Part shown: positions 7,564-58,404 of the stretch, piece after piece
Numbering within the stretch: position 1 is the stretch's first letter
Layout: every line of letters begins with the position of its first letter
DNA from: Rickettsia typhi
GTDB taxonomy: Bacteria; Pseudomonadota; Alphaproteobacteria; Rickettsiales; Deianiraeaceae
Length of the DNA stretch: 64,000 nt
Reading direction: 5' to 3'
NCBI GenBank assembly: GCA_945861725.1
Contig: CAMAVJ010000004.1
Location: forward strand, 30,721 to 94,720
The notes under the pieces: generated by a model
What the model was told of the DNA's origin: nothing
What the model saw: only the letters and a program-made list of their open reading frames with translations
Databases searched by the model: none
Program-made: the position numbers and the translations under genes

Positions 7564-7564
7564 T

Positions 7565-16291: not shown

Positions 16292-16298
16292 TGCGAGT

Positions 16299-19925: not shown

Positions 19926-19989
19926 ATGGTTTTGGCTTTTTAAGCTAATGGCATATTAACTATATACAATTAATTAATTTTTATTTTTT

Positions 19990-20652
19990 ATGTTTAAAGA
20001 GAGGAGTAAACTTAAAATCGCAATGAATATTGCGTTCATGGTCTCAGCAGCGGGTGTTGCGACAATCGTACACAATGCACCAGCAAGTGCTGAAACATAC
20101 ACTGCACCTTCTTCGACGGGAAACTATACAGTTGGCGCTGACAAGGGTGATTATGTTGGATCGTCAACGACATATGGAACTTTAGACGTACTACATCTAT
20201 TTCCATTAACAACGCAAAGTGATGCCAACAGAAAAATTACTGGTACAGCACAGGCACAAATTATGAAGCAGATTACATCGGCAACAGCTGGAACTTTGGA
20301 TTTTGGTAAAGTTGTGCCAACTGTCACAGCGGGAACTGTTGTTGTAAATGCCAATGGTTCAATTACAAACTCTGGTGGAGCTCGTTATATTCCCAACTCT
20401 GGTGCACACGTTGCAACGCTATCATTCAGCGGGGAACCAAACCAAGGAATTTTAATTGATACAGCACCATCGGCAACACTTGCAAATGGCGCAAATACAA
20501 TGACGGTCAACTTCCTTTATCCAACACTGCCAACAACAATTGGTGCCGCAGGAACGGCAACAATGAACTACGGTGGAACTCTTAATGTTGGAGCAAACCA
20601 AGCAGCTGGTATTTACACAGGTACATATGACATCTATGTAACTTATGTTTAG
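19990..20652 (+). CDS. Secreted fibre/pilin-like subunit 2 (DUF4402-like)
   Basis: 220 aa. It has the same signal peptide and core as subunit 1 but a longer variable N-terminal region. It shares 71 identical nt with gene 1 and 117 identical nt with gene 3. Confidence 0.7.
   Translation: MFKERSKLKIAMNIAFMVSAAGVATIVHNAPASAETYTAPSSTGNYTVGADKGDYVGSSTTYGTLDVLHLFPLTTQSDANRKITGTAQAQIMKQITSATAGTLDFGKVVPTVTAGTVVVNANGSITNSGGARYIPNSGAHVATLSFSGEPNQGILIDTAPSATLANGANTMTVNFLYPTLPTTIGAAGTATMNYGGTLNVGANQAAGIYTGTYDIYVTYV
20493..20609 (+). repeat. 117-nt block identical between subunit genes 2 and 3 (second copy at 21027..21143)
   Basis: Base-by-base comparison: the run from aaatacaatgacggtcaacttcc to accaagcagctgg is identical, and the remaining 3' ends are near-identical. 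Confidence 0.9.
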
Positions 20653-20655
20653 CAG

Positions 20656-21186
20656 ATGGTCAATGCCAAATTTACACCTTTAAAAACCTCTTTTGCGGTT
20701 TTACTAAGGATGCTACTGGTATACACCACATTCAACCTTTCCCATACATTGCATTTCAATGCAAATGCAATTGAGGGAACGGTTGGCGCACAAGTTATGC
20801 AACAAATTGCATCAACTTCCGCTGGTAATATGGAATTTGGAAAAGTTGTTCCAACGGCAACAATTGGTACTGTAACAATTTCTCCAACTGGTGATGTTAC
20901 AAACGCAGGTGGGGCTCGTTATATTCCAAACTCTGGTGCACATATTGCAACTCTGACATTCTCAGGTCAGCCAAATCAAAACATTAACATTGAAACACCA
21001 ACTTCAACAACCATTGCCAATGGAGAAAATACAATGACGGTCAACTTCCTTTATCCAACACTGCCAACAACAATTGGTGCCGCAGGAACGGCAACAATGA
21101 ACTACGGTGGAACTCTTAATGTTGGAGCAAACCAAGCAGCTGGCGTTTACACGGGTACATATGACATCTATGTAACTTATGCTTAA
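20656..21186 (+). CDS. Secreted fibre/pilin-like subunit 3 (DUF4402-like, short N-terminus)
   Basis: 176 aa. It has a different, less canonical signal region (..HFNANA/IEG) and the same core ending GGTLNVGANQAAGVYTGTYDIYVTYA. Confidence 0.65.
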   Translation: MVNAKFTPLKTSFAVLLRMLLVYTTFNLSHTLHFNANAIEGTVGAQVMQQIASTSAGNMEFGKVVPTATIGTVTISPTGDVTNAGGARYIPNSGAHIATLTFSGQPNQNINIETPTSTTIANGENTMTVNFLYPTLPTTIGAAGTATMNYGGTLNVGANQAAGVYTGTYDIYVTYA

Positions 21187-21211
21187 TTAAATTTAACCTT
21201 TTTCATTTTTT

Positions 21212-22072
21212 ATGATACTAAAAAGAGCCGTCGCTTTAACAATTACTACCACTACTATCGCTTTATTATTTGCATCATCAGCATTTGCTAGGCTTTCATT
21301 GACACCGTTACGCGTCGAACTTAACACCACTAGTAAAATACAATCTGTATTACTTATGAATGAAACAGCAGATGTAACAACATATCGTATAGGTTTTCGA
21401 TACCAAACTATGACGCCAACTGGTGAAATTAAACTTGCAACAGAAGAAGAACATAAACTTATGCAACCAATCGAACAAATGGTTATGTTTTCTCCAAAGC
21501 AGGTGACGCTTCAACCAAAGCAAACTCAAACTGTGAAATTCACATTTAGGAAAATCCCAACTGCAACATTAAGCGAATATGCTGCTTATATTGTTTTTCA
21601 AGAACTTGATGACAGTCCAATAATTCCACAACTTTCAGAACAACCGGATGCAGGAAATGTTGCAATTAAAGTAAAACCTTTGTTCAAAATATCTATTCCA
21701 ATTTTTATTTCAGACGAAACTTCAACAAGTCAGAAATCAGCAGAAATTAATAATATGAAAATTGACAAGGATTTGAATGTCATAATGTTTGACATCAACA
21801 ATGTTGGACAATACTCAATGACTGGAAGAATTGTTGCGAAATTTTTCAAGGGCAAAAAAATGCTTGGTAAATTTGAACAAACAAATGTTTCAATTCCAAA
21901 CCCTTTAAAAATGCGTAAAATTCTTTTACAATACGATGAAACGGCCTTTAAGGATGATGATATTACTTCAATTGAGGCAACTTACTTACCCCCAGTTGGA
22001 GCAAGAGAATACAGCATCGCCAAAAAAATATTGGAATTGACACCGCGTACAACGCTAGATTCAGATAAATAG
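21212..22072 (+). CDS. PapD-like periplasmic chaperone (putative)
   Basis: 286 aa with signal peptide ..SSAFA/RLSLTPLRVEL. The mature N-terminus has the P.R motif. FSPKQVTLQPKQTQTVKFTFRK...YAAYIVFQEL parallels PapD ATPPVQRLEPGAKSMVRL...LFYFNLREIP. Confidence 0.6.
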   Translation: MILKRAVALTITTTTIALLFASSAFARLSLTPLRVELNTTSKIQSVLLMNETADVTTYRIGFRYQTMTPTGEIKLATEEEHKLMQPIEQMVMFSPKQVTLQPKQTQTVKFTFRKIPTATLSEYAAYIVFQELDDSPIIPQLSEQPDAGNVAIKVKPLFKISIPIFISDETSTSQKSAEINNMKIDKDLNVIMFDINNVGQYSMTGRIVAKFFKGKKMLGKFEQTNVSIPNPLKMRKILLQYDETAFKDDDITSIEATYLPPVGAREYSIAKKILELTPRTTLDSDK

Positions 22073-22157
22073 ATGATGGCGATAATTATGCTAACCAATG
22101 TTCCACTTCATGTGTTTAATATCAAAATTATTTCGCCAATTGGTTCAAATAACCATT

Positions 22158-25043: not shown

Positions 25044-25522
25044 TGAAAGTTTTAAGAAATAATTTTGTGGTAATGTCACTCATCATTTCTTGGCTTTTGA
25101 CTGGATGCCTCTCCGTTGAGCCAAGGATTTTGAAGGTTGAAGATCGTCTTAAACCGCCATACAACTATCTTCTTCTTAAAGAAGTTGGAAATGATACAAC
25201 ATTCGATTATAAATGGAGTAATTACGATGACGGTTATCTAAGAATGGGCGATAAATTCTTGAAAGCTTATGTTCATATTATGAATAGAATGGAATCGCAA
25301 CCGCAGGATTTTATGTTTAACATTTATAAAAACCAAAAAGATGAAATCGTTGCAAGATTCAAGCAAAATGGTGAGGGCATTCAAGCAATTCACGAAAGAA
25401 GTGTGCTGAATGCATTTACAAAGATACTACTTGATGAAACTGAAAGTATTATTGAAACTGGCGATGAATTTTCAGTTGTAAATGATATTACAATCGTAAT
25501 TCCACGAATGGACGACAAGTAA
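25040..25522 (+). CDS. Lipoprotein of unknown function, last gene of the fibre locus
   Basis: 160 aa. The lipobox is WLLTGC. The ATG overlaps the usher-like stop (ATGA). Confidence 0.55.
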   Translation: MMKVLRNNFVVMSLIISWLLTGCLSVEPRILKVEDRLKPPYNYLLLKEVGNDTTFDYKWSNYDDGYLRMGDKFLKAYVHIMNRMESQPQDFMFNIYKNQKDEIVARFKQNGEGIQAIHERSVLNAFTKILLDETESIIETGDEFSVVNDITIVIPRMDDK

Positions 25523-34280: not shown

Positions 34281-34889
34281 TCAAAATCTACCTATAACTT
34301 TCTTCGCATCCTTTAGCACCTCTGCCAACGCGTGCAGCGATCTTTTTTTGGCATTCTGTTTGTGTTTGCGGTTTTCCTTTCCTAAACAACTCGCTATTGA
34401 TGCCTTGGTGCATCTTTCTTCAATTGCGATATCATCGTCAGTTGGAGTTCTACCGCACCATGCACGATTTTGTGTTGTTGAAATTTGATGCCCAATCTGA
34501 GCATAACGCCCGGATTCCTCATTTAATTTGTCCCTGAGTAACATAATATTTCTATCGTAGAGGTGGCCATGCTTCCGTTGTAACTCATCTACGTTCTTCT
34601 TGCGTTTTACATCCAGTTCATAATCATTCATATAGTCGTTTTTCATACTATCTTTGTCACTATTGTAATTCTGCGTCAACGCTGTTGGTTTTTTGATATA
34701 AATAGCAACATGCGACTTTGTTTCGGCATCATACCCATATTCCATTTGACTCCGATCTGTGTGATTGCCTTCTTGTGGTTGAAAATCAATCTCATGATCG
34801 TCCGTTTCCCGCTCCTGTGAACAGAGGCAATCTTTCATTAAACTCCAGAAGATATCAAGCACACCAGTGCTTTGTGTATTGTTTTGCAT
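34281..34889 (-). CDS. Orphan hydrophilic protein, GC-enriched, unknown function
   Basis: 202 aa with no signal peptide or TM segment. It is rich in charged residues and has a basic C-terminus (KKRSLHALAEVLKDAKKVIGRF). It has its own TTGCAT-N17-TATAGT promoter. GC is 27/60 in line 34321-34380. Confidence 0.5.
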   Translation of the reverse strand: MQNNTQSTGVLDIFWSLMKDCLCSQERETDDHEIDFQPQEGNHTDRSQMEYGYDAETKSHVAIYIKKPTALTQNYNSDKDSMKNDYMNDYELDVKRKKNVDELQRKHGHLYDRNIMLLRDKLNEESGRYAQIGHQISTTQNRAWCGRTPTDDDIAIEERCTKASIASCLGKENRKHKQNAKKRSLHALAEVLKDAKKVIGRF

Positions 34890-35097: not shown

Positions 35098-35907
35098 TTA
35101 ATTCTTGCTTTCATACATACCTTTGCGAAGTGTGATCATTGCCCAAATGCCAAAAATTGGAATTAAAGCGAAAATCATAAAAAAACCAAACCAATGATGC
35201 CCACCATTATCATTCCCGATGCCAGTCATACCAAAGCGAAAACCTTCGATTATATAAAATACCGGGTTTAAAAAAATTACCTTCTGCCACGCATCAGGAA
35301 GTGATGCTATTGAATAAAATGTTCCTGAGAGCATTGTAAGTGGGGTGATGATATACGATGTGTAGGCGTGAGCTTTGTCAAAATCAGAAGCAGCAAAACC
35401 GACAAGAATACCAACAAATGCAAAAATTAATGAACCAGCGGTGATATAGTATAATGCAAGGAAAATGTTGTGAATATGAAAATCAACAAATGGAAGTATC
35501 GCAATTAAGGTGATAAATGCCACTAAAAGTGCACGAATTAATGAAGAGACTATCATTGCTAAAATAATTTCGGCATTTGTTAGAGGTGCAATCGTGTAAT
35601 CTCTAATGAAACCAAGCATTTTTGCGACCGTTATAGTGGCTTGTGTGTTTTGATACGCAGCTTGTAAAGCGGACATTGCAATCAACCCAGTGGCAACAAT
35701 CATACCATATGAAATGCCATCAAACGACGTACCTTCAGCGTTAGATCTTCCGCCAAATGCTACTGTAAAAATTACAAAAAACACAAGGGCGTTGATTACG
35801 GGGGAAAGTATTGTTTGATTATATACTTTCAAAAAACGCATACATTCCTTCTTTAGAAGAGTTGAGAACCTTATAAAGTTTACATGTTGATTTATGTTGT
35901 GCATCAT
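35098..35907 (-). CDS. ABC-2 type transporter permease (YadH-like), no adjacent ATPase
   Basis: 269 aa with 6 TM segments. The N-terminus FSTLLKKECMRFLKVYNQTILSPVINALVFF is typical of ABC-2 permeases. Confidence 0.65.
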   Translation of the reverse strand: MMHNINQHVNFIRFSTLLKKECMRFLKVYNQTILSPVINALVFFVIFTVAFGGRSNAEGTSFDGISYGMIVATGLIAMSALQAAYQNTQATITVAKMLGFIRDYTIAPLTNAEIILAMIVSSLIRALLVAFITLIAILPFVDFHIHNIFLALYYITAGSLIFAFVGILVGFAASDFDKAHAYTSYIITPLTMLSGTFYSIASLPDAWQKVIFLNPVFYIIEGFRFGMTGIGNDNGGHHWFGFFMIFALIPIFGIWAMITLRKGMYESKN

Positions 35908-35917
35908 ATATTATATT

Positions 35918-36229
35918 TCATACAATCATATTGGCGTTCATATTATACATGACCCATGCGGAACCAGCAACGACAATAAAAACCATTGCAATAGAAAAAA
36001 TCATTGAAATCAAATTCCAGCGTGGCTTACCATCGCTTCCCTCTGAATTTATATGCAAGAAGTAGATTATCTGAATTAATAGCTGTACGACGGCAAGCCC
36101 TGTAATGGCGATGTAAGTGTTACATGTTCCAAAGAATTTTTCCGTGACGATATAATACGAAGCAAGGGTTAAAATTATGGAAATGAAAAATCCAACAAAA
36201 TAGGACTTATAACTTGTGTGGTTAATCAT
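35918..36229 (-). CDS. cyoD: Cytochrome bo3 ubiquinol oxidase subunit IV
   Basis: 103 aa with 3 TM segments. It sits directly after cyoC and has YFVGFFISIILTLASY. Confidence 0.8.
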   Translation of the reverse strand: MINHTSYKSYFVGFFISIILTLASYYIVTEKFFGTCNTYIAITGLAVVQLLIQIIYFLHINSEGSDGKPRWNLISMIFSIAMVFIVVAGSAWVMYNMNANMIV

Positions 36230-36243
36230 ATATTTTAAAAAAA

Positions 36244-36870
36244 TTATATCGCATTAAAAAGATAGACGATTGTGAATACACAAACCCAGATAACATCTAA
36301 AAAGTGCCAAAAAAGCCCAAGGCAATAAAGCTTATTTTGATTTTTAGGCGTAATTCCGCGAATGGCAAGCTGTATTGTAACGAGAAGCATCCAGACTAAA
36401 CCAGATATCACATGTAATCCATGAGTTCCAACAAGGGTAAAAAATGCGGAAAAGGCAGCGTTTGTGCTGGGTGAGTGTCCGTGTGTAATCAAATGATGGA
36501 ACTCATAAAATTCCATTCCAACAAACGATACTCCAAGGGCAAATGTCATTGCAAGCATTGTGAACATCATACATTTTTTACCATCACGAGCAAAAAGCAA
36601 ACCAAGACCATAAGTAAAACTACTTGTTAAAAGTAACATTGTTTCTCCAAGAACAAACGGCATTGAAAACATTCCCGTAAGTGATGCACCACCCGCCGTT
36701 GAATTTTTTAAAACTGCGAATGTTGCAAAAAGAGCGGAAAACAGAATACAGTCGCTCATGATATATACCCAGAACCCAAATGTATTTTTTGCAAAAACTT
36801 CCCGTTCGTGGTGGTTATCGTGATTATGATGCTCACCGTGGTGATTGCCAATTTGAGTAATGTGTGACAT
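36244..36870 (-). CDS. cyoC: Cytochrome bo3 ubiquinol oxidase subunit III
   Basis: 208 aa. It has FGFWVYIMSDCILF, YEFHHLI, GTHGLHV and FWHFLDVIWV. Confidence 0.9.
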   Translation of the reverse strand: MSHITQIGNHHGEHHNHDNHHEREVFAKNTFGFWVYIMSDCILFSALFATFAVLKNSTAGGASLTGMFSMPFVLGETMLLLTSSFTYGLGLLFARDGKKCMMFTMLAMTFALGVSFVGMEFYEFHHLITHGHSPSTNAAFSAFFTLVGTHGLHVISGLVWMLLVTIQLAIRGITPKNQNKLYCLGLFWHFLDVIWVCVFTIVYLFNAI

Positions 36871-36876
36871 ATTTTT

Positions 36877-38862
36877 TTAAATTAGTTTAATGTAAGATGC
36901 CTCAATTGCTTCCACTTCCGAAGCTTTGATATAGTAATCTGTGTTTTCATCGAATGCTCTGTAAATCAAGAATGCAATACATAGAGCTGTCGAAACGCCT
37001 GCGAGCCACCAAATGTGCCAAACAATTCCAAAGCCAATGAAAAATGTTATTCCTCCAGCAAAGACACCAATTGCCGTGTTCTTTGGCATATGTATATCTT
37101 CATATTTAACCTTAACTTTGTGCGTTATTTGGTTGTTAGGGTTTTCACATTTTTCTTTCATATTCCAAAAGGCGTCTCTATCATGAACGTGCGGCACAAT
37201 TGCAAAGTTGTAAAGAGGAGGAGGCGACGGCATTGACCATTCAAGCGTTCTTCCATCCCAAGGGTCACCAGTTGTATCAGCAAGTTTTTTGCGTTGAATA
37301 ATACTCACAATTAACTGAAGAACTTGACATCCAACACCAGCTGCAATAATTGCCACACCAACAACAGAAACAATCAAAAATGGAGTCCACTCAGGATTAG
37401 TGTAGTAATTCAGGCGACGAGTCATTCCCATTAATCCTAAAATATACAGCGGGACGAAGGTTATGTAAAACCCGATATTCCAGCACCAAAATGCACCCTT
37501 TCCAAGTCTTTCGTGAAGTTTGAAGCCCGTTATTTTTGGAAACCAGTAAATTAAACCGGCTAAATACCCAAATACAACGCCTCCAATTATTGTATTATGG
37601 AAGTGTGCAATTAAGAAAAGTGAGTTATGAACTTGGAAATCCACCCCAGGAATTGCCATCATAACACCAGTCATTCCGCCAAATGTGAATGTTACTAAAA
37701 AGCCGAGCGTCCAAAGCATTGGAACGGAAAAAGTTATTCTTCCTCTAAACATTGTGAATAGCCAGTTGAAGATTTTTATCCCCGTTGGAATCGATATAAT
37801 CATTGTTGTTATTCCAAAAAATGCGTTGACATTCGCACCCGATCCCATCGTAAAAAAGTGATGAAGCCATACTATCATTGAAAGAAATACAATGATAAGA
37901 ATAGCCCAGACCATCGTTGTATAGCCAAAAAGCTTCTTTTTTGAAAATGTTGAAACAACTTCGGAAAAAATTCCAAAAGCTGGAAGAACGAGTATGTAAA
38001 CCTCTGGGTGTCCCCATATCCAAATAAGGTTAATGTACATCATTGCATTTCCGCCAAGTTCAGGCGTGAAAAAGTGCATGTCGAACAGTCTATCAAATGA
38101 AAGCATTGCAAGCGTTGCCGTTAAAACGGGGAAGACTGCAATAATCATAATCATTGAAGAAAGGATTGTCCAAGTGAAAATTGGCATTTGCATAAGTTTC
38201 ATTCCTGGTGCACGCATTTTGATAATCGTCACAAAAAAGTTGATCGCAGAAAGAAGTGTTCCAATTCCTGAAATTTGCAAAGCCCAAATATAGTAATCAA
38301 CACCAACACCTGGGGAGTATGTTATTCCTGAAAGCGGCGGATACGCGAGCCAGCCCGTCGCAGCAAATTCACCAATCAAAAGCGAAGCATTGACAAGCAT
38401 TGCGGATGCTATCAAAAGCCAAAGTGAAAGAGAATTTAAAAATGGATAGGCAACATCCCTTGCTCCAATTTGAAGCGGGACGACAAAATTCGCAAGACCA
38501 AACAGAAATGGCATCGCCATAAAGAATATCATAATCACGCCGTGAGCAGTGAAGATTTGATCATAATGTTCAGGCGGCAAGTAGCCAGATCCTTCACCAA
38601 GTGCCATTGCCTGATGGGTTCGCATCATAACGGCATCAGCAAAACCACGCACAAGCATTATAAATGTGATGATTAAATACATTACGCCTATTTTTTTGTG
38701 GTCAACGGTTGTAAGCCAATCTCTCCAAAGCCATTTCCACTTCTTAAAGTATGTTATTAGTGCAAAAATTCCAACTGCACCAAGGGCAATCAGTCCGCCA
38801 GTTATTTGAACGATAGGGTCATGTGGAAGGGAATCTAATCCAAGTTTTCCAAAAATGTTCAT
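36877..38862 (-). CDS. cyoB: Cytochrome bo3 ubiquinol oxidase subunit I
   Basis: 661 aa. It has the heme-copper oxidase motifs [31 protein letters not shown] and [12 protein letters not shown]. Confidence 0.95.
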
Positions 38863-38983
38863 TTGTATGTTAAAAAATTATATTTTAATAGCAATTGTTA
38901 GGGTAGCACATATTGCGTCGATTGATCCAACTGCGATGGTAAGTGGCGATAGTGATGAATATTTCATAGTCTATTTCTAATAA

Positions 38984-39865
38984 TTAATGATGACCTTCAT
39001 GCTTCATTTCCAAATGATTATCCATTGGCTTATCTATTTTTTGCATCTTCTCTTCTACTTTGTGGTGGTTATTATGCGAGTCGTGTGACATCATAAATTT
39101 ATCAATTACTCCACGATATAACCCATTTTCTACATCAGAGAATACTTGCACAGGTTCGTTTTTTGTCTGTGGAAATAGTGTTGCATCGTATACATCTTGT
39201 GTAAGATTTATACCTTCAGTTTTAACATATTCAACCCATTTTTCAAACTCTTCTTTTGAAGTTGCTTTTGCAATAAAGTTCATTCCAGAAAATCCATGAC
39301 CGGAGTAATTTGCAGAATAACCACTAAATTCTCCTTCTTTGTTAGCGATTAAATGAATTTGTGTTTCCATTCCTTGCATTGCATAAATTTGACCACCAAG
39401 TTGTGGAATTGCAAAGGAATTCATTGGAGCATCGGCCGTAATTTTAAAATTTAAAGGAGTATCAATTGGAAATTGAATAAAGTTCACGGTTGCAATGTTA
39501 TATTCAGGATAGATGAAGAGCCACTTCCAATCCAAAGCAATAACCTGAATTTCAATTGGCTTTGCTTGGTGTTCGGTCAGTGGGCGGTAAGGATCGAGTT
39601 CGTGCGTCGTTTTCCATGTAACGATTGCAAGGATTATTATCAGAATTGTTGGAATTCCCCACCAGACGATCTCAAGAAGTGTGCTGTGGCACCAATTTGG
39701 TGTATACTTTGCCTTCGTGTTGGATGCTCGGTATTTGTAAGAAAAGAATATTATCATAAGCATTACAGGAATGACGACGATAAGCATCAAAAGAAAGGCG
39801 AAGATTATCAGATTTTTTTCCTGAAGGGCAATTATTCCCATTGGATTCAAGACCGCTATATTCAT
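38984..39865 (-). CDS. cyoA: Cytochrome bo3 ubiquinol oxidase subunit II
   Basis: It has YKYRASN, two TM segments, IALDWKWLFIYPE and MNSFAIPQLGGQIYAMQGM. The start is set at Met11 of ORF 38984..39895, because a TTGACA-N17-TTTCTA promoter overlaps the upstream ATG. Confidence 0.88.
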   Translation of the reverse strand: MNIAVLNPMGIIALQEKNLIIFAFLLMLIVVIPVMLMIIFFSYKYRASNTKAKYTPNWCHSTLLEIVWWGIPTILIIILAIVTWKTTHELDPYRPLTEHQAKPIEIQVIALDWKWLFIYPEYNIATVNFIQFPIDTPLNFKITADAPMNSFAIPQLGGQIYAMQGMETQIHLIANKEGEFSGYSANYSGHGFSGMNFIAKATSKEEFEKWVEYVKTEGINLTQDVYDATLFPQTKNEPVQVFSDVENGLYRGVIDKFMMSHDSHNNHHKVEEKMQKIDKPMDNHLEMKHEGHH

Positions 39866-39894
39866 TTTGCGAATTGTAGTTAACAAGCAAAGCA

Positions 39895-39923
39895 TAGAAA
39901 TTGCAATGGTTTTCCAATGTCAA
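39895..39923 (-). promoter_or_regulatory. Promoter candidate for cyoABCD
   Basis: Minus-strand TTGACA-N17-TTTCTA. It overlaps the first ATG of the ORF track, which argues for the downstream start. Confidence 0.4.
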
Positions 39924-39935
39924 GAAAAATTACAG

Positions 39936-40586
39936 TTATGCAAAAAATTCACGCTTTTTGATCAACCTTTCGTGGAAATCTTCATACTTGAATGCTTCAA
40001 AGACGAAGCTCCCTGCGATGAAGGAATTTGCACCTGCTTTTCTAACGCTTGGAAGGTTTTTTTCCGTTATTCCACCATCAACTTGAAGCAAAATACTCCT
40101 TCCGGATTCCTTGATCATTTGTGAAATTGCTTCAATTTTTGGAATTTGGCTTTCGATGAAGCTTTGTCCGCCAAAGCCGGGGTTGACTGTCATAACTAGA
40201 ATTAAATCGACTAAATCCAAAAGGTGTGCAATTGTGGAATGGTGTGTTGCAGGATTTAATGAGATGCCGACTTTGCATCCGAAAGATTTCAAATACTGGG
40301 CAAGTCTATGTGCGTTTTTTGTTGCCTCAATGTGAAATGTGATGCAGTAAAGCGGGAGATTTTTAAATTGGTCGACGAAAATTTCAGGATTCTCGACCAT
40401 TAAATGGCAATCCATCGTTAGTGGAGTATTGAGCGATGCCAGAATTGGTGCACCAAATGTTAAATTTGGGACAAAATGCCCGTCCATAACATCGCAGTGA
40501 ATGGTTTTGTACCCAGCGGATTCCAAAGCTTTTAGTTGAAAACCCAAATTTCCGAAATCCGCGGAAAGAATTGATGGTATTAACAT
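39936..40586 (-). CDS. rpe: Ribulose-phosphate 3-epimerase
   Basis: 216 aa. It has PSILSADF, HCDVMDGHFVPNLTFG, VMTVNPGFGGQSF and QVDGGI. Confidence 0.93.
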   Translation of the reverse strand: MLIPSILSADFGNLGFQLKALESAGYKTIHCDVMDGHFVPNLTFGAPILASLNTPLTMDCHLMVENPEIFVDQFKNLPLYCITFHIEATKNAHRLAQYLKSFGCKVGISLNPATHHSTIAHLLDLVDLILVMTVNPGFGGQSFIESQIPKIEAISQMIKESGRSILLQVDGGITEKNLPSVRKAGANSFIAGSFVFEAFKYEDFHERLIKKREFFA

Positions 40587-40587
40587 G

Positions 40588-42240
40588 CTATGTGACTTGG
40601 TTAGTGATTGGTGGTTTTCTTGCGGCGTTTACTGCTGATGCCTTTATCGAGTTCGCATTAACTATTGTCATAGCCAGCCGATCAGCTGGCTTTGCGTATC
40701 CTGCCTTCCTCTCTCGATATGCCTCATTAGTTTCACCCACGCCCTTCATCGTACTCTTCTCACCGCCTTGACGTATCTCACTTGGTTTTTCTGCTGCTGC
40801 TGTGAATTTTTGCACCCTCCTATCGACCTTCCCATCGACCTTCCTCTTCAGAACTTCTGTTACATCTTCTGGAGAATGTTTAGTAGTAGCACTGTAAATG
40901 TACTTTGTTACAGCATAAGCGTTATCTGCTTTATTTAATTCGTCCTTCAGCACTAATGTCTTATTTTTGTCCTCTAAACTCTGCATGTCGCCATCATATT
41001 GTGTAACGCTGCTCTTGCTTTGATGTTGCTGCATCTTGCCTTTCATTGTGTCAACTTTTGATTGAGCGGTTTGGAATGGAAGTTTATTAAGGACAAATGC
41101 CGTGAATTTATCCATCTTTTTTTCTCCAAAATTGGCGATTTGCTTAAATGTCGTTCCAAAAGGCTTGTTATATGCCAAATCAACAAACACTGAAGGTATG
41201 GCACATGCAATTGCCACAGTACCCATAACTACCGTTCTTAGTATAACAAAAGGTAACGTAATCAATTTAAATAATCCCTCAAGAATGTCTCGCAGCATAT
41301 CCTTCCCTGCTCTCTTTGCCAACCCTGGAAAATCCTCAATATCGTTACCAAGTCTATGAAAAAAAGCTTTTACTGCACCAAATGGTTCTTTTTGCAGTGC
41401 CTCCTCAACTGCACTGCGGGCATGCAGAATCTTATTCCTTTGATCGACTTTAGCCTGAGCATATGCCAGTGTATTCTTATATTTATCACTCAATTCGATA
41501 TTTAATGCCTTGCGTAAATGTTTCTCTGTTTTAGTACTTTTTAAGTTGTTTAGGGCTTGCCACTCTATTGTATTATTAGTCATCGCTTTCTCATTAGCAT
41601 TCATTGCTGCTGTTAGTGCGTCCGCATACTGTTTAGGCACGTTGCTTGTTGATGAAATCTGTTGTATTGGAGGAGCAGGATTGGATGATTGTGCCGCTTC
41701 ATGTGTTATGCTGTTTAGTGGTAAGCTCAAGAGGAGAGCACGCAATAAAGTATCATCAGCCTCAGGACGGGAGAATATAGCCCTGAGTTTAGCACGTTCC
41801 TCATCGCTTAATGTCGCATCTACTGCGTTGCTCGATGCGTTTGTAGCTTTAAGATCAGCAGCCTGTTTAAGTGAGTAATAATCTAGGAGTTCTTGTTGTT
41901 GCTTTATTGCTTCTAGTGAGAATGTGCTCGCATTTTTATTGATTGCTGTAGCATGGTTATCATCTGGTGCTTGATTATTTAATAATGCTTTTTTTTGGTT
42001 TGCGACTGGTGTGGTAAGTTTTCCGCTCGCAATCTTAATATTTTGTTCCGTTGTAAGTGTGTGACCGTTTGTGCCTTTGTCCATTCGCTTTTGCACATCA
42101 ACAGTTGTATTCCCGCCGATTGGCGGTAAAAGTCTGCGTCGTAGTGTACCTTGGTGGTTTCTCTTGATGTCATCATTAGGTGTTTGCAATCGCTGTGTAA
42201 GTCGACTATGTTCCTGTACTTCTGCTTCACTTCGTACCAT
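40588..42240 (-). CDS. Orphan 550-aa protein, GC-enriched, with a central hydrophobic hairpin; candidate secreted or membrane-inserted effector
   Basis: It has no signal peptide, and both ends are long, hydrophilic and rich in Q, N, K and A. The single hydrophobic block ILEGLFKLITLPFVILRTVVMGTVAIACAIPSVFVDLAY spans residues 319-356. GC is 28/60 in line 41581-41640, against 18/60 in line 39901-39960. Confidence 0.55.
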   Translation of the reverse strand: MVRSEAEVQEHSRLTQRLQTPNDDIKRNHQGTLRRRLLPPIGGNTTVDVQKRMDKGTNGHTLTTEQNIKIASGKLTTPVANQKKALLNNQAPDDNHATAINKNASTFSLEAIKQQQELLDYYSLKQAADLKATNASSNAVDATLSDEERAKLRAIFSRPEADDTLLRALLLSLPLNSITHEAAQSSNPAPPIQQISSTSNVPKQYADALTAAMNANEKAMTNNTIEWQALNNLKSTKTEKHLRKALNIELSDKYKNTLAYAQAKVDQRNKILHARSAVEEALQKEPFGAVKAFFHRLGNDIEDFPGLAKRAGKDMLRDILEGLFKLITLPFVILRTVVMGTVAIACAIPSVFVDLAYNKPFGTTFKQIANFGEKKMDKFTAFVLNKLPFQTAQSKVDTMKGKMQQHQSKSSVTQYDGDMQSLEDKNKTLVLKDELNKADNAYAVTKYIYSATTKHSPEDVTEVLKRKVDGKVDRRVQKFTAAAEKPSEIRQGGEKSTMKGVGETNEAYRERKAGYAKPADRLAMTIVNANSIKASAVNAARKPPITNQVT

Positions 42241-42258
42241 CCTTCAAAATAAAAAATT

Positions 42259-42295
42259 AATAAGTAGAACCACTTAAAAAATGGGTCTACTTATT
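42259..42295 (-). terminator. tuf terminator
   Basis: A 14-bp stem with one mismatch (AATAAGTAGAACCA / TGGGTCTACTTATT) is followed on the minus strand by TTTTTTATTTT. It overlaps a second hairpin (42291-42326). Confidence 0.6.
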
Positions 42296-42341
42296 ACCCC
42301 TAAAGCCGGAGCTCAAAGGGTAATAATAGGTTTTAGCGATA

Positions 42342-43529
42342 TTAAGCAAGAATTTTACCAACAACACCAGCACCAACTGTTCTGCCACCTTCACGGATAG
42401 CGAAACGAACACCTTCGTGCATAGCAATTGGAGAAATTAATTCCACTGTGATTTTAACGTTATCACCAGGCATAACCATTTCAACTCCTTCTGGAAGTGT
42501 AACTGCACCTGTTACGTCTGTTGTCCTGAAGTAAAATTGTGGACGGTAACCCGCAAAGAATGGACTGTGACGACCACCTTCTTCTTTAGAAAGAACATAA
42601 ATTTCAGCTTCGAATTTTGTGTGAGGAGTAACCGTTCCTGGTTTAACGATAACTTGACCACGTTCGATATCATCTTTTTTAACACCACGAAGAAGAATTC
42701 CAACATTGTCCCCAGCTTGACCTTGATCCAATAATTTACGGAACATTTCAACACCGGTAACTGTTGTTTTTTGTGTTGGACGAAGACCAACGATTTCAAC
42801 CTCTTCACCAACTTTGATAATACCAGCTTCAATACGACCAGTAGCAACAGTACCACGACCAGAAATTGAGAATACATCTTCAACTGGCATAATGAATGGT
42901 TTGTCTAACTGACGAATTGGCATTTCGATAAAAGTATCAAGAGCATCCATCAATTTTTTAATTGATTGCGTACCAAGTTCAGAATCTTCACCGCTAAGAG
43001 CTTTCAAGGCTGAACCTCTGATGATTGGAGTGTCATCACCTGGGAAGTTGTACAATGAAAGAAGTTCACGAACCTCCATTTCAACGAGCTCAAGAAGTTC
43101 TTGATCCTCAACCATATCACATTTATTAAGATACACAACAATCCTTGGAACACCAACTTGGCGTGAAAGAAGAATGTGTTCACGAGTTTGTGGCATTGGA
43201 CCATCAACCGCAGACACAACAAGAATAGCACCGTCCATTTGAGCGGCACCTGTTATCATATTTTTGATATAATCGGCGTGTCCTGGACAGTCAACGTGTG
43301 CGTAGTGGCGGTTGTCAGATTCGTATTCAACATGGGCCGTAGAAATTGTAATACCACGAGCTTTTTCTTCAGGAGCTTTATCGATTTGATCGTACGCTTG
43401 AACTTCACCACCGTGTATTGCTGCTTGCACTTTTGTAATTGCTGCTGTAAGCGTTGTTTTGCCGTGATCGACGTGACCAACTGTTCCAACATTTACGTGA
43501 GGTTTATTCCTCTCAAATTTTTCAGCCAT
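42342..43529 (-). CDS. tuf: Elongation factor Tu
   Basis: 395 aa. It has [18 protein letters not shown] and NKCD. Confidence 0.98.
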
Positions 43530-43704: not shown

Positions 43705-44346
43705 ATGAATCAAAGCAAGAAAAATGTTGTAAAAACTTTACTTAAACAAGCAAAATATGAACAGGATAATTCTGCTGAGGAGTCTGCGAAAAAATCAAAA
43801 GACCTGAGTATCGAAAATAGAGGGTTAGAGTCAACAATAGATTGTAAAGGTCCTTATTTGCTTGGGTATGAGGATTGTTATGACGATGCTAAGCGGAGGG
43901 ATATTGGCAATGCTACCGTTCCCACCAAGTGTATAGACAATAGTAAGTACAGTCAAGATAAGTACAATCAAGGGTGTAGTAATGCCATGAAGGACGCGAA
44001 TGCTAGCTGTGATAAAATGACAGAAAGTGCTTATTTGTCTAGCCTCAATGACAATAATTGCTTTAATAGCGGTATGAAATTGAAGGGGCAATTCGCATTA
44101 AATATAACAAGTATAAATAATACGACTATTCCGCAATTTTGTCAGACAAGAGTCAATAGACAAGCTTTAGATGGTTGTAGTAGAGCTCACAACAATGGTG
44201 TGACGACGGCATTATTTTCCATCGGCGTTGCAACGCTGGTGCTGGTGGCGTTAGCAACAAAGTTAGCACGATGTAACAGAGGAAATGGAGGACGAAACGA
44301 TGAAATTGAACTTCCAGGAGTCCCAGTAATAGGCCAAGCAAGATAA
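43705..44346 (+). CDS. Orphan Cys-rich protein with a C-terminal TM anchor
   Basis: 213 aa with no N-terminal signal peptide. Eight Cys are spread over residues 47-158. There is one TM segment near the C-terminus (TTALFSIGVATLVLVALATKLA) and a short basic/Gly tail. It has a consensus TTGCAT-N17-TATAAT promoter. GC is 26/60 in line 44161-44220. Confidence 0.55.
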   Translation: MNQSKKNVVKTLLKQAKYEQDNSAEESAKKSKDLSIENRGLESTIDCKGPYLLGYEDCYDDAKRRDIGNATVPTKCIDNSKYSQDKYNQGCSNAMKDANASCDKMTESAYLSSLNDNNCFNSGMKLKGQFALNITSINNTTIPQFCQTRVNRQALDGCSRAHNNGVTTALFSIGVATLVLVALATKLARCNRGNGGRNDEIELPGVPVIGQAR

Positions 44347-50231: not shown

Positions 50232-50260
50232 TTGCTTTATCCTCAAAAATGTTGTATTAA
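50232..50260 (+). promoter_or_regulatory. Promoter-like motif at the 5' end of the 241-aa orphan ORF
   Basis: TTGCTT-N17-TATTAA. If it is functional, the annotated TTG start is not used. Confidence 0.35.
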
Positions 50261-50957
50261 TTATGTATCTTTTTCTACACAACTTGCAGAGGACGTTGAT
50301 GAGTGCGGTGTGAAAAAAATAAGATCAAAATGGGAGCAGATTTCGGATAAGAATGCTGATATTATGCTAATACGCATCGACAAAAGCTTACACAAGGATG
50401 AAATTACTGCTGGAACATACGAAGGTGGCACTATGCAGCAAGACATAACGATAGCACACACTAAGGTGGTGAACGGTGAAGTTGCTGTAGATTATAAAAC
50501 AGACGAAAGATCGATAACTGTACCAAATGGAAATGGCACATTCACTGCCAACGATGGCAATAAATTTTTTACGCATTTTGCTAACGGTTACAGTAAATGG
50601 AGTGCAAAGGCACCAGAGGGTGTACCGGCATATGTTTGTTATTTGTTCTCCTGCAAGACTTTTCTTACAAAGAATCGTGGGAATATAATGGAAAAATGTT
50701 ATTATGAAATCAGAGAAGTAAAGGAGATGGAAATAAAAAAACGAGAACTTCTGGCAAAAGAACGACGTATGCCAATAGTCGAACCAATGAGTGATGGTAT
50801 TAGGTTGCGCGACATTGGGCTTATGGATTCTGGTAGTATGAATATAAGTAATCTAAGTGTCGATGCTAAACAACAAGCAGGGCAACATAATTATTGTAGT
50901 CCACGTAGTAATTCAAGGGGTCAAATCGAAGGAATAGGAATAGGAATAGAATTATAA
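50232..50957 (+). CDS. Orphan protein, GC-enriched, unknown function (start uncertain)
   Basis: The ORF opens with TTG 34 nt after tRNA-Asp, but that TTG is part of a TTGCTT-N17-TATTAA promoter-like motif. The real start is more likely GTG at 50310 or ATG at 50364. I recognise no family. The C-terminus ends GIGIGIEL. GC is 25/60 in line 50281-50340. Confidence 0.45.
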   Translation: MLYPQKCCINYVSFSTQLAEDVDECGVKKIRSKWEQISDKNADIMLIRIDKSLHKDEITAGTYEGGTMQQDITIAHTKVVNGEVAVDYKTDERSITVPNGNGTFTANDGNKFFTHFANGYSKWSAKAPEGVPAYVCYLFSCKTFLTKNRGNIMEKCYYEIREVKEMEIKKRELLAKERRMPIVEPMSDGIRLRDIGLMDSGSMNISNLSVDAKQQAGQHNYCSPRSNSRGQIEGIGIGIEL

Positions 50958-55066: not shown

Positions 55067-57070
55067 ATGTTGCGAAAAATTATTTTCCCTGCGATTATCA
55101 TGCTTGCAACATTTGGCAATGCTTATTCAGACTTTAGCCCAACTAATTCATTTATTGATCCCGCGTGTCTTGCAAGGCAGAATACTACCTCCACTGGGGC
55201 GACTACCATCACCAATAAACGACTTTCTGCTCCAACATTTTTCGAATTAAGAATCGAAATTCAGAAAAACCTTACAAACTTCCTTACAACAAGAATTATT
55301 TCTCACGATCTTTCATCATCTGGAGGTGGAAAGTCGTGTCCAAACCCTTTTACAAATTCCAATTGTAGCATTACGGGTTTTAACAACACCGATGGCACCG
55401 CCATTACAATCGATCAACTCTACCAATTCGTTGTTTATGGAACACTGTATAGATACATCGCCGCAGATGTTCTTGATGGTAACACACTTGAAACATTGCG
55501 GACTGAATTTTCAAAGGGTTATATCGACCCCCAATCCCCAGGATACGATGTCACATTCGCACAAAATGCAAGTCAAACATTTGATGCCAAACTTAAATCT
55601 ATTGTAGGAAGCCTTGGATTGACGGACGGGATAAACTCTTTGAATAATAAATCAACTGCGGATATTACTACTCTTGTCGACACAGCATCCACAAAGATCG
55701 CCGAATCGATGTCTTCTGATGCCTTGTTTTTACAGAAATTTGGATACTCCTCCCTTGTTGCGTTTCCAATAACTTCCCGTTTGATGGAGTGCCTCGATGG
55801 AACGTTTAGTAATCTTTTTATGAGAGATATCGCTGGTATCAAACAAACGCCTTTCAGAATCGCACAAGATTACTTCAAGCCCGTCGTAATTCTTGCGTTA
55901 ATACTGTACTTCATTGCTTATGGTTATAAAATAATGATGGCACACGGAATGGGTAAGCAATCCGAAATGTTTATGTTTGCCATTAAATTTGGTTTAGTTT
56001 TTTATTTTTCCATCGGTGAGGGGTGGAAAGAAATTGGATTTAACTTTCTAAAGTCAATTCCTGCAACCGTTTCGCAAATTATGTTTGAAGCTCTGCCAAG
56101 TTCTGAAGATGGCTGCTCTGTGTATACACCGCAGCTTTATCCTTCCGGTAAAGGTATTTTATCATTCTTTGATACTATCGATTGTAAATACGCAAATTAC
56201 ATCGGTTTACCTTCTGGTAAATCAATTCCAGCGATTTTTTCACTAATAACATTCCCGATGTTAATTCCAATTCCAATGGTGGGGTTAATTATCTCAATCC
56301 TTTCAATTGTATATCTTTCATTGGTAACTTATGGAATTTTAGCGGGAATAGAGATTTATATATCATCAATAGTATTTTTAACATTTTACCTATTTCTTTC
56401 GCCCATCATCGTTCCCATGGCTTTATTCGAAAAAACTAGTGGTATATTCACAACATTTCAAGGAAAAATTGTCGGGTGCGTCGTGCAAGGAGTAATGGCA
56501 ATTGTTCTTATTGTAACAACCATAGCATTGATGGATGGAATAATATATGGAAAAGACCCCGTGGGCAATCAACTATTTGTTCCACCAACTCAGTCATATG
56601 TTAATGGAATTCCTCAGCCAAAAATAATGAGTAAAGACTGTTACCCGAATAGCACAGTTGGCGTTGCCTCAAGTGGTGGTGCCACTCTTGGTAAACTAAG
56701 TGTAGTTCCTATGGCGTGTCATCTTGCAAAAATTGCGAATGAGGGCGTTACTTGGATTGGGTTTCCAATTCCTTATATTTTTACATTTTTTGAGTTACCG
56801 GCACCCGGAGTTGGTCTTGCTACTTTACTAATTCCCCTCATACTTCCCGCAATTATAACTGTTATAATGTTGTTTATAATAAATACTGTTATGAGTCAAA
56901 CAAAGGCTATGATCGATAAAATTAGTAATGCAGAAAATATGGGCTCCTTTGGTGCGGCAAAATATAGTGGTGCAGCTGCTTTGATTGAGGGAGGGAAAAA
57001 AGTTGCTGGCGAAGGAAAACAAGCTTATGATGATGTAATGAAGGCATTTAGCTCAGATAAACCGAAATAG
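55067..57070 (+). CDS. TrbL/VirB6-like type IV secretion inner-membrane protein (putative), solitary
   Basis: 667 aa. It has a signal peptide (..TFGNAYS), a soluble region of about 250 aa, at least 6 TM segments including FKPVVILALILYFIAYGYKIMMAHGMG, and a hydrophilic tail. The architecture matches long Rickettsiales-type VirB6 paralogues. This is a by-eye call only. Confidence 0.45.
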   Translation: MLRKIIFPAIIMLATFGNAYSDFSPTNSFIDPACLARQNTTSTGATTITNKRLSAPTFFELRIEIQKNLTNFLTTRIISHDLSSSGGGKSCPNPFTNSNCSITGFNNTDGTAITIDQLYQFVVYGTLYRYIAADVLDGNTLETLRTEFSKGYIDPQSPGYDVTFAQNASQTFDAKLKSIVGSLGLTDGINSLNNKSTADITTLVDTASTKIAESMSSDALFLQKFGYSSLVAFPITSRLMECLDGTFSNLFMRDIAGIKQTPFRIAQDYFKPVVILALILYFIAYGYKIMMAHGMGKQSEMFMFAIKFGLVFYFSIGEGWKEIGFNFLKSIPATVSQIMFEALPSSEDGCSVYTPQLYPSGKGILSFFDTIDCKYANYIGLPSGKSIPAIFSLITFPMLIPIPMVGLIISILSIVYLSLVTYGILAGIEIYISSIVFLTFYLFLSPIIVPMALFEKTSGIFTTFQGKIVGCVVQGVMAIVLIVTTIALMDGIIYGKDPVGNQLFVPPTQSYVNGIPQPKIMSKDCYPNSTVGVASSGGATLGKLSVVPMACHLAKIANEGVTWIGFPIPYIFTFFELPAPGVGLATLLIPLILPAIITVIMLFIINTVMSQTKAMIDKISNAENMGSFGAAKYSGAAALIEGGKKVAGEGKQAYDDVMKAFSSDKPK

Positions 57071-57077
57071 TAATAGA

Positions 57078-57590
57078 ATGATTAATATGAAAGAATTTAT
57101 TTACTTTGGAAGAATCTCAAAAACTCACGGCGTTATTGGGCACTTTGTTATCAATGCAAGTACATTTGAAAATGCACAGGAATATATCCTCAATTTATTC
57201 ACGAATAAAGGCGGAGATGATGTATTTGAAGAATTTTCCATCGAATTAAGAGGTGTTTTAAACGATAACAACTTGATTGTAAAAAAGTCGCAATGTAATA
57301 CGCTTGAGGCGGCAAAAGCTTTGGTTGGAACTAAAGTTTTTGTTCCAAGAAGCGTTTTACCTCCGTTAGAACAAGGAGAGTTTTACCCATGTGATATCGT
57401 TTCTTTTCAAGTTTTTGATGAAAATGCTAATTTTGCTGGAACGGTGATTGATGTTGTTGATTTTGGCTCTGGAGCTTCAATTGAAGTTCGCAACCCAAAA
57501 GAAAAGCTTGAATATTATCTTATTGATGTTTATACAAAAATAGATTTTGAAAATGAAACTGTCTCAATAATTTTGCCAAAATATGTCTAG
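57078..57590 (+). CDS. rimM: 16S rRNA processing protein RimM
   Basis: 170 aa. It has FGRISKTHGVIGHFVI and a PRC-barrel C-terminus, with FYPCDIVSFQVFDENANFAGTVIDVVDFGSG. Confidence 0.8.
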   Translation: MINMKEFIYFGRISKTHGVIGHFVINASTFENAQEYILNLFTNKGGDDVFEEFSIELRGVLNDNNLIVKKSQCNTLEAAKALVGTKVFVPRSVLPPLEQGEFYPCDIVSFQVFDENANFAGTVIDVVDFGSGASIEVRNPKEKLEYYLIDVYTKIDFENETVSIILPKYV

Positions 57591-58404
57591 CACCAGCAAA
57601 CTTCCTCAATTTATCAAACAACCTCTCTCGTTTCTGTTTTACACAGTAATTCTTGTTGTAATGATGATGTTTGTCTATGACTTTCTAACGAGACATTTTC
57701 CTGAAATACTATTGAATAATAATGTTTCTGCTAAAAAAAATATAGCATTGCCAGGTGGTATCATTACATTGGAAAATTCTGAAATTCCTTCTTTGCAAGA
57801 AAGGGTAAGAGCAAATGAAGAGGAGATTATATTACTTCGTTCCGCCCTTGCAAATATCAATAAAAATGCAGTCAATTCTGAAAGGTATGCAAAATTTTTC
57901 TTAATTGTTTCAAATTTGAACGAAATGATTAAAGGCAATAATGAAATTGATATTTCCCTTGAGATTTATGCGTTGAAGAGTTTTGCCACCAATGATGAAA
58001 AGCTTTCAAAAATTATTACTGATATTTCCGATATTAAAACCGTTTATGGAGTGCAATACTTTAACCAAAACTTCAGCAGAGTTGTGAGGAAGATTATGAA
58101 GAAATATTATGAAAACAAGGAGGACCATCCATTTATTGTGTATATAAAAAGTCATGTTATGCCGTATTTTGCCTACATTTCACCAGAAGGAAGTCGTATA
58201 TCTTCAATATTACACCAAGCTCATCAACAACTTGAGGCACAGAATATGGAAGGATTTTATAAGCTTCTACTTGAAGTTTCGAACAAAGATGCAAACGATA
58301 GCATAATTTTCAAAGATTTTATGCAAAAGCTCGAACGACACGTACGCGTTGCTTCAGCAATCGATTCTTCAAAAAAGTACGTTGAAACAATGCTAATTGC
58401 GTAA
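57583..58404 (+). CDS. N-terminally membrane-anchored coiled-coil protein, unknown function
   Basis: 273 aa with one TM segment (LSFLFYTVILVVMMMFVY) followed by a predicted helical region. It overlaps the rimM stop by 8 nt. Confidence 0.5.
   Translation: MSSTSKLPQFIKQPLSFLFYTVILVVMMMFVYDFLTRHFPEILLNNNVSAKKNIALPGGIITLENSEIPSLQERVRANEEEIILLRSALANINKNAVNSERYAKFFLIVSNLNEMIKGNNEIDISLEIYALKSFATNDEKLSKIITDISDIKTVYGVQYFNQNFSRVVRKIMKKYYENKEDHPFIVYIKSHVMPYFAYISPEGSRISSILHQAHQQLEAQNMEGFYKLLLEVSNKDANDSIIFKDFMQKLERHVRVASAIDSSKKYVETMLIA

Follow-up and report, generated by a model that had tools for sequence, protein, structure and literature searches.

A hypervariable gene position between tuf and rpe in Deianiraeaceae-type Rickettsiales and its candidate hairpin-anchored effector

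What does a gene encode that sits between two housekeeping genes and is exchanged for an unrelated one between strains whose flanking DNA is nearly identical? Here we report the analysis of such a gene, termed X, an open reading frame (ORF) at positions 40588-42240 on the minus strand of a 64,000-nt stretch of contig CAMAVJ010000004.1 (the whole stretch is hereafter called the window), where it fills the interval between tuf and rpe (the slot; the gene found there in any lineage is called its slot ORF). That X truly codes for a protein is shown by its 550-codon frame, by a codon-position GC pattern of GC1>GC2>GC3, and by homologues detected at E-values of 2e-15 and 1e-13; it belongs to an uncultured bacterium from freshwater, a member of Rickettsiales of the Deianiraeaceae type. 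An earlier note, made from the sequence alone, had described X as a GC-rich, compositionally foreign orphan with a central hydrophobic hairpin, and as effector-like. Beyond that note, we found that the slot is hypervariable across Deianiraeaceae-type lineages, which strengthens the effector idea. The leading hypothesis is that X is a putative diversifying transmembrane effector of the rvh type IV secretion system, delivered to a protist host; we assign it a probability of about 0.35.

The frame is confirmed, as an ATG-initiated ORF on the minus strand. The codon-position GC of X (0.51/0.39/0.34) is of the coding type and resembles that of other window genes, and the 550 codons remain open within DNA of about 36.5-36.8% GC. 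A word-index search of 5.8 billion proteins returned X itself as the sole match, and searches of Pfam (E <= 0.1), NCBIfam and PDB profiles gave nothing meaningful for X. An exhaustive phmmer search of 1.84 billion cluster representatives recovered two proteins, P0007 (340 aa, E 2e-15) and P0008 (405 aa, E 1e-13), whose matches cover X residues 205-436. The name orphan is therefore apt as far as the word-index search and the family databases go, and no longer apt given the two distant relatives found by phmmer. A metagenome scan with a profile of the conserved core recovered only the already known P0008 contig; searches of plasmids, phages and IMG/VR contigs gave no meaningful match to X or to the other slot proteins; and neither the rest of the window nor the related loci compared with it contain a paralogue of any slot protein. 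Homology to a conserved housekeeping membrane protein had been named as the finding that would speak against an effector; the searches returned only X and its two syntenic relatives.

X and its two homologues share a conserved core (Table 1), which carries the motif PFG..KAFF.RLG..I.D.PG, followed by TLPF and a second proline within the hydrophobic block, and then by VD...KP.GTTFK.IANFG.K. Beyond the core the three sequences are barely alignable, and the first ~200 aa of X have little or no counterpart in the homologues. The hydrophobic block lies at a conserved position in both of them, and patches of the core constitute the sole nucleotide similarity between X and the slot gene of locus L086, which encodes P0008. 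Purifying selection probably acts on the open frame and, within the X family, on the hairpin core.

Both P0007 (locus L085) and P0008 are encoded directly downstream of tuf and are followed by rpe, the rpe of L085 being a fragment, as was confirmed at the nucleotide level. The same order, tuf, then one ORF without a significant Pfam match, then rpe, was found in all seven lineages reached via variants of elongation factor Tu (EF-Tu), which have EF-Tu identities of 89-92%, so that the position between tuf and rpe, already noted for X, turns out to be shared. In each of the seven the slot ORF lies close to the rpe start, from a 4-nt overlap to an 18-nt gap. Nucleotide homology between the window and its relatives spans tuf; it extends across the spacer in L086 and L085, ending 11 nt before the ATG of the slot ORF, and it restarts at the rpe start in every relative. 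Between the window and the L086 lineage, identity is 30-34% over 143-190 aa for X, as against 59-92% for twelve neighbouring orthologues (CyoB 92%, EF-Tu 92%, GltA 85%, Rpe 82%, EamA 59%); judged by these identities, no other local orthologue evolves nearly as fast as X. Loci L100 and L086 have 88-92% identical flanks at the nucleotide level (EF-Tu 99%, Rpe 95% and CyoB 98% at the protein level), and no similarity of their slot ORFs was detectable as DNA or as protein. Near-identical flanks around unrelated slot ORFs point to allele replacement and not to gradual divergence. Likewise, the 255-, 267- and 466-aa slot proteins gave no significant match to the X family or to each other by BLASTP or hhalign, the best such comparison being the LPF motif of L098 (E 0.16). 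Genes that face an external antagonist or partner typically diverge and are replaced in this way, and the fastest local evolution together with the hypervariable slot fits a role in host interaction better than a housekeeping one.

In its replacements the slot is similar to replacement-type flexible genomic islands, which also carry non-homologous genes at the same core-bounded position (as in L100 versus L086) with sharp breaks of homology. It differs from them in that a single gene is exchanged, in that its alleles have a common architecture, and in that it lies inside a housekeeping transcription unit, whereas flexible islands are multi-gene and devoted to glycosylation or defence. Slot ORFs that range from 255 to 550 aa, several alleles that are mutually without detectable similarity, and codons of X that are shifted from the tuf-like optimal set (more AAG, GAG, ATA and AGY) would also fit a dispensable, weakly constrained gene in a slot that gains and loses lineage-specific ORFs, the hydrophobic block and the basic tails being by-products of AT-biased, Lys-rich sequence. 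We hold this to be quite unlikely: chance frames of 255-550 codons would not persist in DNA of 33-43% GC, and every lineage keeps one; a gap-free core of 111 aa stands out at E 1e-13 to 1e-15 between unalignable flanking regions; and the tight coupling to rpe is present in 7/7 lineages. Moreover, the X protein is identical on six assemblies from several samples, and all close copies of X, as all close copies of P0008, are identical in sequence.

Further observations concern the surroundings of the slot. In the window, the cyoABCD-ABC2 block (35098-39895, minus strand) lies downstream of rpe in the same orientation; the block is inverted in L086 (12038-16942) and in L100, and an IS1595-family transposase lies beside the inverted block in L086. 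The window also encodes DprA, which adjoins an Mrr-type restriction endonuclease (15035-17207, minus strand); DprA hints at natural transformation, which could drive the exchange of tuf-rpe alleles. Near tuf lies another orphan ORF (43705-44346, plus strand) encoding a Cys-rich protein of 213 aa with one strongly hydrophobic, tail-anchor-like C-terminal segment; it has no Pfam or NCBIfam match, its codon usage ranks third in deviation within the window (B 0.454), the L086 locus lacks it, and all copies of it that were found are near-identical.

The composition of X had been the main argument for a foreign origin. The hand counts behind it (28/60 GC in 41581-41640 and 18/60 in 39901-39960) are arithmetically right on recount, whereas the comparison fails, as the second segment consists mostly of the spacer between cyoA and rpe. 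The GC content of X (41.4%) equals that of tuf (41.5%), ranks fifth among the 58 window ORFs (z +1.5), and is accompanied by a GC3 with z +1.0. The codon usage is only moderately atypical, with a Karlin B of 0.343, the second most deviant value among the 16 genes of more than 350 codons (0.242 +/- 0.079), and with synonymous codons shifted away from the set preferred in tuf. The two homologues have 31.4% and 29.8% GC in comparison with about 40% in their neighbours; a high GC content is thus no trait of the X family, and that of X most likely reflects its Ala-rich composition.

That X is a recently acquired foreign gene has in its favour the GC content above the window mean of 36.8% and the rank of its codon usage, and is nevertheless effectively refuted for the X family and very improbable overall. 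Besides the GC values of tuf and of the AT-richer homologues, by which the composition test proposed with the claim itself goes against it, the slot is filled by homologues also in lineages that have diverged by 8-11% in EF-Tu; the tuf-ORF-rpe synteny in seven lineages speaks for long residence of X at this position and not for recent import. Flanking direct repeats, att-like sites, tRNA genes and integrases are absent from the slot borders, and searches of plasmids, phages and viral contigs returned nothing similar. An integron-like cassette was considered and rejected, as neither a hairpin nor an attC-like site follows X. That X is neither foreign nor GC-rich is a correction that matters by itself.

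How is a gene in this position expressed? The spacer upstream of X contains two tandem stem-loops and a U-run (Table 1), X begins 101 nt after tuf, and about 15 nt separate the U-run from the ATG. The spacer folds with -30.3 kcal/mol (z -4.3), and the arms were also recovered as inverted repeats. The same hairpin pair is present in L086 (9916-9979, z -6.2) and L085 (9872-9929, z -3.7), with four compensatory pairs in the second stem among the three lineages; Rfam contains no match for these stem-loops. A consensus scan of the minus strand of the spacer revealed no sigma-70-like site. Thus, the earlier statements that X starts behind the tuf terminator without a recognisable promoter of its own, and that its stop codon lies 1 nt from the rpe start (TAG-C-ATG), both hold. 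The double stem-loop probably acts as a terminator or attenuator that controls read-through to the slot gene and to rpe. The gap between tuf and the slot ORF is only 21-29 nt in L097 and L098, too short for a terminator. In the simplest reading, the slot gene and rpe would be transcribed from the tuf promoter, with attenuation where the double hairpin is present, and rpe would be translationally coupled to the slot gene.

The protein itself contains a single hydrophobic block split by one Arg, as had been described; it spans aa 319-358, with positive charge on both sides. The maximum Kyte-Doolittle value over 19-residue segments of X is 2.08, and all segments above 1.6 are centred at aa 328-348. 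The absence of a signal peptide and the polar nature of the ends were confirmed: the same scan found no N-terminal hydrophobic (Sec) signal, and outside the block the sequence is polar in composition (A 11.6%, K 9.8%, T 8%, N 6.7%), with ends rich in A, K, T, N and Q. The 19-residue segments of the block, at 1.9-2.1, fall inside the spread of 54 bona fide transmembrane (TM) segments of the window (2.14 +/- 0.35). On a rough, position-independent insertion-energy scale after Hessa 2005, which gives approximate values, they score +2.1 to +5.8 kcal/mol, compared with +1.0 +/- 2.3 for the bona fide segments, and most true membrane proteins of the window have at least one segment below -1 kcal/mol; on these approximate values the block is marginal for autonomous membrane insertion. 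Its two lobes measure 17 and 22 aa around the one-residue break, whereas those of the homologues measure 12-15 and 15-17 aa around a break of 2-5 aa, carry conserved prolines, and have 1-2 charges between them. With such short, proline-containing lobes and intervening charges in the homologues, the block has several possible topologies, and in X it could form a genuine hairpin of two spans, a re-entrant wedge, or a single span with an amphipathic helix. AlphaFold2, run with three-sequence alignments on the full-length protein and on the core, gave all-helical models of low confidence, too weak for a fold search (mean predicted local distance difference test score, pLDDT, 40.8 and 50.9, respectively). 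The first ~200 aa of X are probably disordered, with predicted pLDDT of 25-45 across most of this region and values above 50 only for aa 1-20.

We compared the six slot proteins that are sequenced, those of the window, L086, L085, L100, L097 and L098. All six are hydrophilic (grand average of hydropathicity -0.43 to -1.05) and without a significant Pfam match, five are basic (the exception is L097, with an isoelectric point, pI, of 5.7), and a signal peptide is lacking in all five with a complete N-terminus. Four of the six show clear central hydrophobic segments flanked by polar helices. In the L100 allele two hydrophobic segments are separated by about 30 aa, and one is strong (Kyte-Doolittle 2.9); the L097 protein has one segment, and the L098 protein has no clear TM segment and only a weakly hydrophobic stretch rich in Ala, Phe and Thr. 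The last 20 aa carry a net charge of +1 to +5 with at most one acidic residue in 6/6 slot proteins, in comparison with a mean of -0.07 +/- 1.9 in the 57 other window proteins, 33% of which reach +1; as an observation, the basic tails are suggestive only.

The reading of X as a type IV effector depends on the identity of the organism and on its secretion machinery. A search with the window EF-Tu gave about 35 cluster representatives with identities of 89-92%, most of the other matches listed being at 80-83%, and one EF-Tu of 90% identity is named by NCBI 'MAG: elongation factor Tu [Candidatus Deianiraeaceae bacterium]', after a family of Rickettsiales. The content of the window, namely low GC, transketolase and rpe of the pentose phosphate pathway's non-oxidative part, acetolactate and isopropylmalate synthases and a VirB6-like gene, as well as the freshwater origin of the samples, agrees with the description of Deianiraea vastatrix, so that the placement in Deianiraeaceae fits. 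This bacterium lives in freshwater, extracellularly on Paramecium, has 32.9% GC, makes 16 amino acids, and possesses a full rvh type IV system with three VirB6 copies (10.1101/479196). A difference concerns the oxidase, as the window encodes one of the cytochrome bo type (COX1-4 Pfam domains) and D. vastatrix is reported to have cytochrome bd. The VirB6-like gene named in the earlier note is borne out by a PF04610 match above the cut-off (Table 1). It is solitary, located between acpP/glutaredoxin and rimM, 13 kb from X, with no other type IV secretion gene adjoining it within the window, and tblastn found no plasmid relatives of it; related loci L097 and L098 contain TrbC/VirB2 genes. The product of the VirB6-family gene is a possible export route for X.

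Taken together, the fixed slot, the conserved core, the divergence and replacement of alleles and the recurring signal-less hairpin architecture with a basic tail lead, along with a host-associated order that uses rvh and the literature on type IV transmembrane effectors (TMEs), to the effector reading, for which the lack of matches to housekeeping, defence, phage and plasmid families also counts. Transcription from the strong tuf promoter would read through into X, translation of X would proceed in tandem with that of rpe, and the protein would be kept out of the bacterial inner membrane or be present there only transiently. The rvh system would recognise the basic, acid-poor C-terminus and deliver the protein to the protist host, where the hairpin would insert into a host membrane with both helical arms cytosolic. 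The arms would bind host factors, and hence would diversify or be swapped by recombination in the conserved flanks. Type IV TMEs typically have one or two moderately hydrophobic segments with very short loops, and type IVB substrates tend to have both termini inside (N-in/C-in) (PMC12981334, see also PMC6110835). The marginal hydrophobicity of the X block agrees with that of the moderately hydrophobic TMEs, a group that includes type III as well as type IV effectors (PMC12981334, PMC6110835). X resembles the TMEs of Legionella, Coxiella, Brucella and Rickettsia (PMC12981334, PMC6110835) in the lack of a Sec signal, in one or two hydrophobic segments with a very short loop, in moderate hydrophobicity, in termini predicted on the same side, in lineage restriction and fast evolution, and in that the host order uses a VirB/D4-type system (rvh). 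It differs in that X is known here from its sequence, which has no similarity in sequence or domains to a known TME.

Several points weigh against this reading. The Rickettsia TMEs in the review are almost all single-span and not hairpins (PMC12981334), and AlphaFold2 draws the block of X, with low confidence, as a single continuous helix of aa 313-361. A segment as hydrophobic as that of the L100 allele would normally be targeted to the bacterial membrane by the signal recognition particle. Co-transcription with tuf and rpe is equally natural for a bacterial structural protein, and fast evolution is also seen in coiled-coil or disordered proteins that have no part in host interaction. The statistic on the tails is weak because the proteins are basic overall, in which case basic C-termini are partly expected, and because three of the six are homologous. 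Finally, the Deianiraeaceae assignment rests on one NCBI label of a 90% identical EF-Tu.

The same evidence can be arranged around the bacterial cell. X might be an inner-membrane protein, anchored by its hairpin N-in/C-in, with cytoplasmic helical arms, and serving as a scaffold peculiar to its lineage, for instance in membrane organisation, polarity or division; low constraint on coiled-coil or disordered sequence would then account for its fast evolution. This is the main rival of the effector reading and, in our estimate, only slightly less probable. It agrees with a block hydrophobicity (1.9-2.1) within that spanned by bona fide TM segments from the same genome, with the flanking positive charge, which fits the positive-inside rule, with conserved juxtamembrane motifs, and with the setting in a housekeeping operon with a conserved terminator and translational coupling to rpe. 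The operon setting and the strongly hydrophobic TM segment of the L100 allele are better explained by a scaffold than by an effector, and Deianiraea shows cell polarity and unusual cytoskeletal genes (10.1101/479196). However, a scaffold that the cell needs is unlikely to be replaced by a non-homologous gene between strains with ~90% identical flanks, and its shrinkage to a 255-aa protein without a clear TM segment would be unexpected. In addition, there is no match to a known membrane-scaffold family, and the 12-17 aa lobes of P0007 are short for two full spans.

Non-homologous single genes between core genes in close relatives are also seen in defence hotspots, and the slot products are membrane-hairpin proteins without signal peptides. 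X might accordingly be a membrane-acting defence protein in a hotspot of conflict genes, such as those of phage exclusion, abortive infection or toxin/immunity systems. This reading has little probability in our estimate, as PADLOC and PHROGs gave no match above noise for any of the six slot proteins, Pfam gave no colicin or holin match, and rpe follows X directly, leaving no partner or immunity gene; the slot proteins, at 255-550 aa, are far larger than holins, and searches of phages, plasmids and IMG/VR contigs found no relatives. Pore-forming colicins and Bcl-2-like proteins have a hydrophobic helical hairpin of roughly 40 aa among amphipathic helices. X resembles them in a hairpin amid helices, the lack of a signal peptide, a basic character and a disordered N-terminus; it differs from colicins in that its hairpin is not C-terminal and in the lack of a plasmid or SOS context. 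A colicin-like toxin was rejected, there being no domain match and no immunity gene.

If X is an effector, in which membrane would it act? The earlier note had compared the hairpin to inclusion or vacuole-membrane effectors. Chlamydial Inc proteins such as IncA share with X a bilobed hydrophobic block, long helical or coiled-coil flanks, high sequence turnover, and recognition by architecture rather than by sequence. Inc proteins are type III substrates whose hairpin usually lies near the N-terminus and has two lobes of roughly 20 aa in a domain of 40-60 aa or more, whereas X has a central block of 38-40 aa, with lobes of 12-22 aa and conserved prolines in its family, belongs to a Rickettsiales taxon with no type III system seen, and matches neither the IncA nor another Inc family of Pfam. 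X is not a member of any Inc family. The two-lobed block itself stands, and the analogy to inclusion and vacuole membranes is weakened by the short, proline-kinked lobes and by the extracellular life of the only characterised member of the family. As this closest characterised relative is extracellular, the target would be the plasma membrane or another membrane of the host and not a vacuole. Of the original description of X as effector-like, therefore, a real hairpin gene that escapes annotation and a nearby VirB6-family gene remain, now joined by the hypervariable slot; the foreign composition is lost.

Deianiraeaceae take a central place in the debate about how Rickettsiales came to depend on hosts and to live inside their cells, and almost no known rickettsial effectors or invasins were found in this family (PMC10847448). 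The tuf-X-rpe slot is a concrete candidate for host-interaction determinants of these uncultured bacteria and a simple synteny handle for collecting further alleles from metagenomes. If the slot products are exported, architecture-defined hairpin effectors would have arisen outside Chlamydiae, Legionella and Coxiella; if they are not, the slot still represents an unusual non-homologous replacement inside a housekeeping operon. A more far-reaching and rather improbable version would make the slot a dedicated diversification locus of Deianiraeaceae-type Rickettsiales, a determinant of host range or host compatibility whose interchangeable, often non-homologous genes encode signal-less, hairpin-anchored helical proteins with basic tails, expressed by read-through from tuf, exported by rvh into membranes of protist hosts and swapped between strains through recombination in the flanks. 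Its products would then form an effector class analogous to the chlamydial Incs and independently evolved in Rickettsiales.

Table 1. Positions of X, its parts and neighbouring features in the window, and lengths of the slot ORFs in seven lineages
Feature	Positions	Strand	Description
X	40588..42240	-	550 aa, ATG start, basic (pI 9.6), predicted all-helical
N-terminal ~200 aa of X	41641..42240	-	polar, lineage-specific extension
Conserved core of X, aa 285-395	41056..41388	-	111 gap-free columns, 32-35% identity, 20/34 invariant columns
Hydrophobic block of X, ILEGLFKLITLPFVILR-TVVMGTVAIACAIPSVFVDLAY, aa 319-358	41167..41286	-	two lobes parted by Arg336, one proline each
C-terminal 20 aa of X	40591..40650	-	net charge +3, zero acidic residues, rich in N, A, S, T
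Two tandem stem-loops and U-run	42243..42326	-	putative tuf terminator or attenuator just before X
tuf (EF-Tu)	42342..43529	-	upstream slot border; Pfam GTP_EFTU, D2, D3
rpe (ribulose-phosphate 3-epimerase)	39936..40586	-	downstream slot border; PF00834, E 3.5e-69
TrbL/VirB6-family gene	55067..57070	+	667 aa, at least 5 TM segments; PF04610, 29.3 bits (cut-off 25.9)
Slot ORF, window (X)			550 aa
Slot ORF, L086 (P0008)			405 aa
Slot ORF, L085 (P0007)			340 aa
Slot ORF, L100			at least 466 aa; 5' end hidden by a scaffold gap
Slot ORF, P0023 contig			419 aa; DNA unavailable
Slot ORF, L097			267 aa; metagenome-assembled genome labelled Deianiraeaceae
Slot ORF, L098			255 aa

Other features of the window are reported here as separate observations. 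A cluster on the plus strand (19326-25522) encodes three DUF4402 proteins, a 286-aa ORF with weak Fn3-like matches, a 981-aa SdrD_B/CarboxypepD_reg protein and a 160-aa ORF; it resembles an assembly cluster of the surface-fibre or pilus type, and the P0023 contig encodes a similar pair (861 aa and 154 aa) close to tuf. For another five ORFs, of 202-333 aa, neither Pfam nor NCBIfam gave a match (57583-58404, 14010-15011 and 50232-50957 on the plus strand, 6688-7584 and 34281-34889 on the minus strand), one of them located directly after rimM, the usual place of trmD. The isoleucyl-tRNA synthetase (1717-4866, minus strand; TIGR00392, 822 bits) contains a GNAT domain inserted at aa 376-510 (PF13302, E 3e-21), and a small separate GNAT ORF (4863-5369, minus strand) lies upstream, overlapping its start by 4 nt. 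The NCBIfam model 'ileS_w_GNAT' scores 292 bits for this synthetase against a cut-off of 1999 bits, and it may represent an independent or very divergent fusion.

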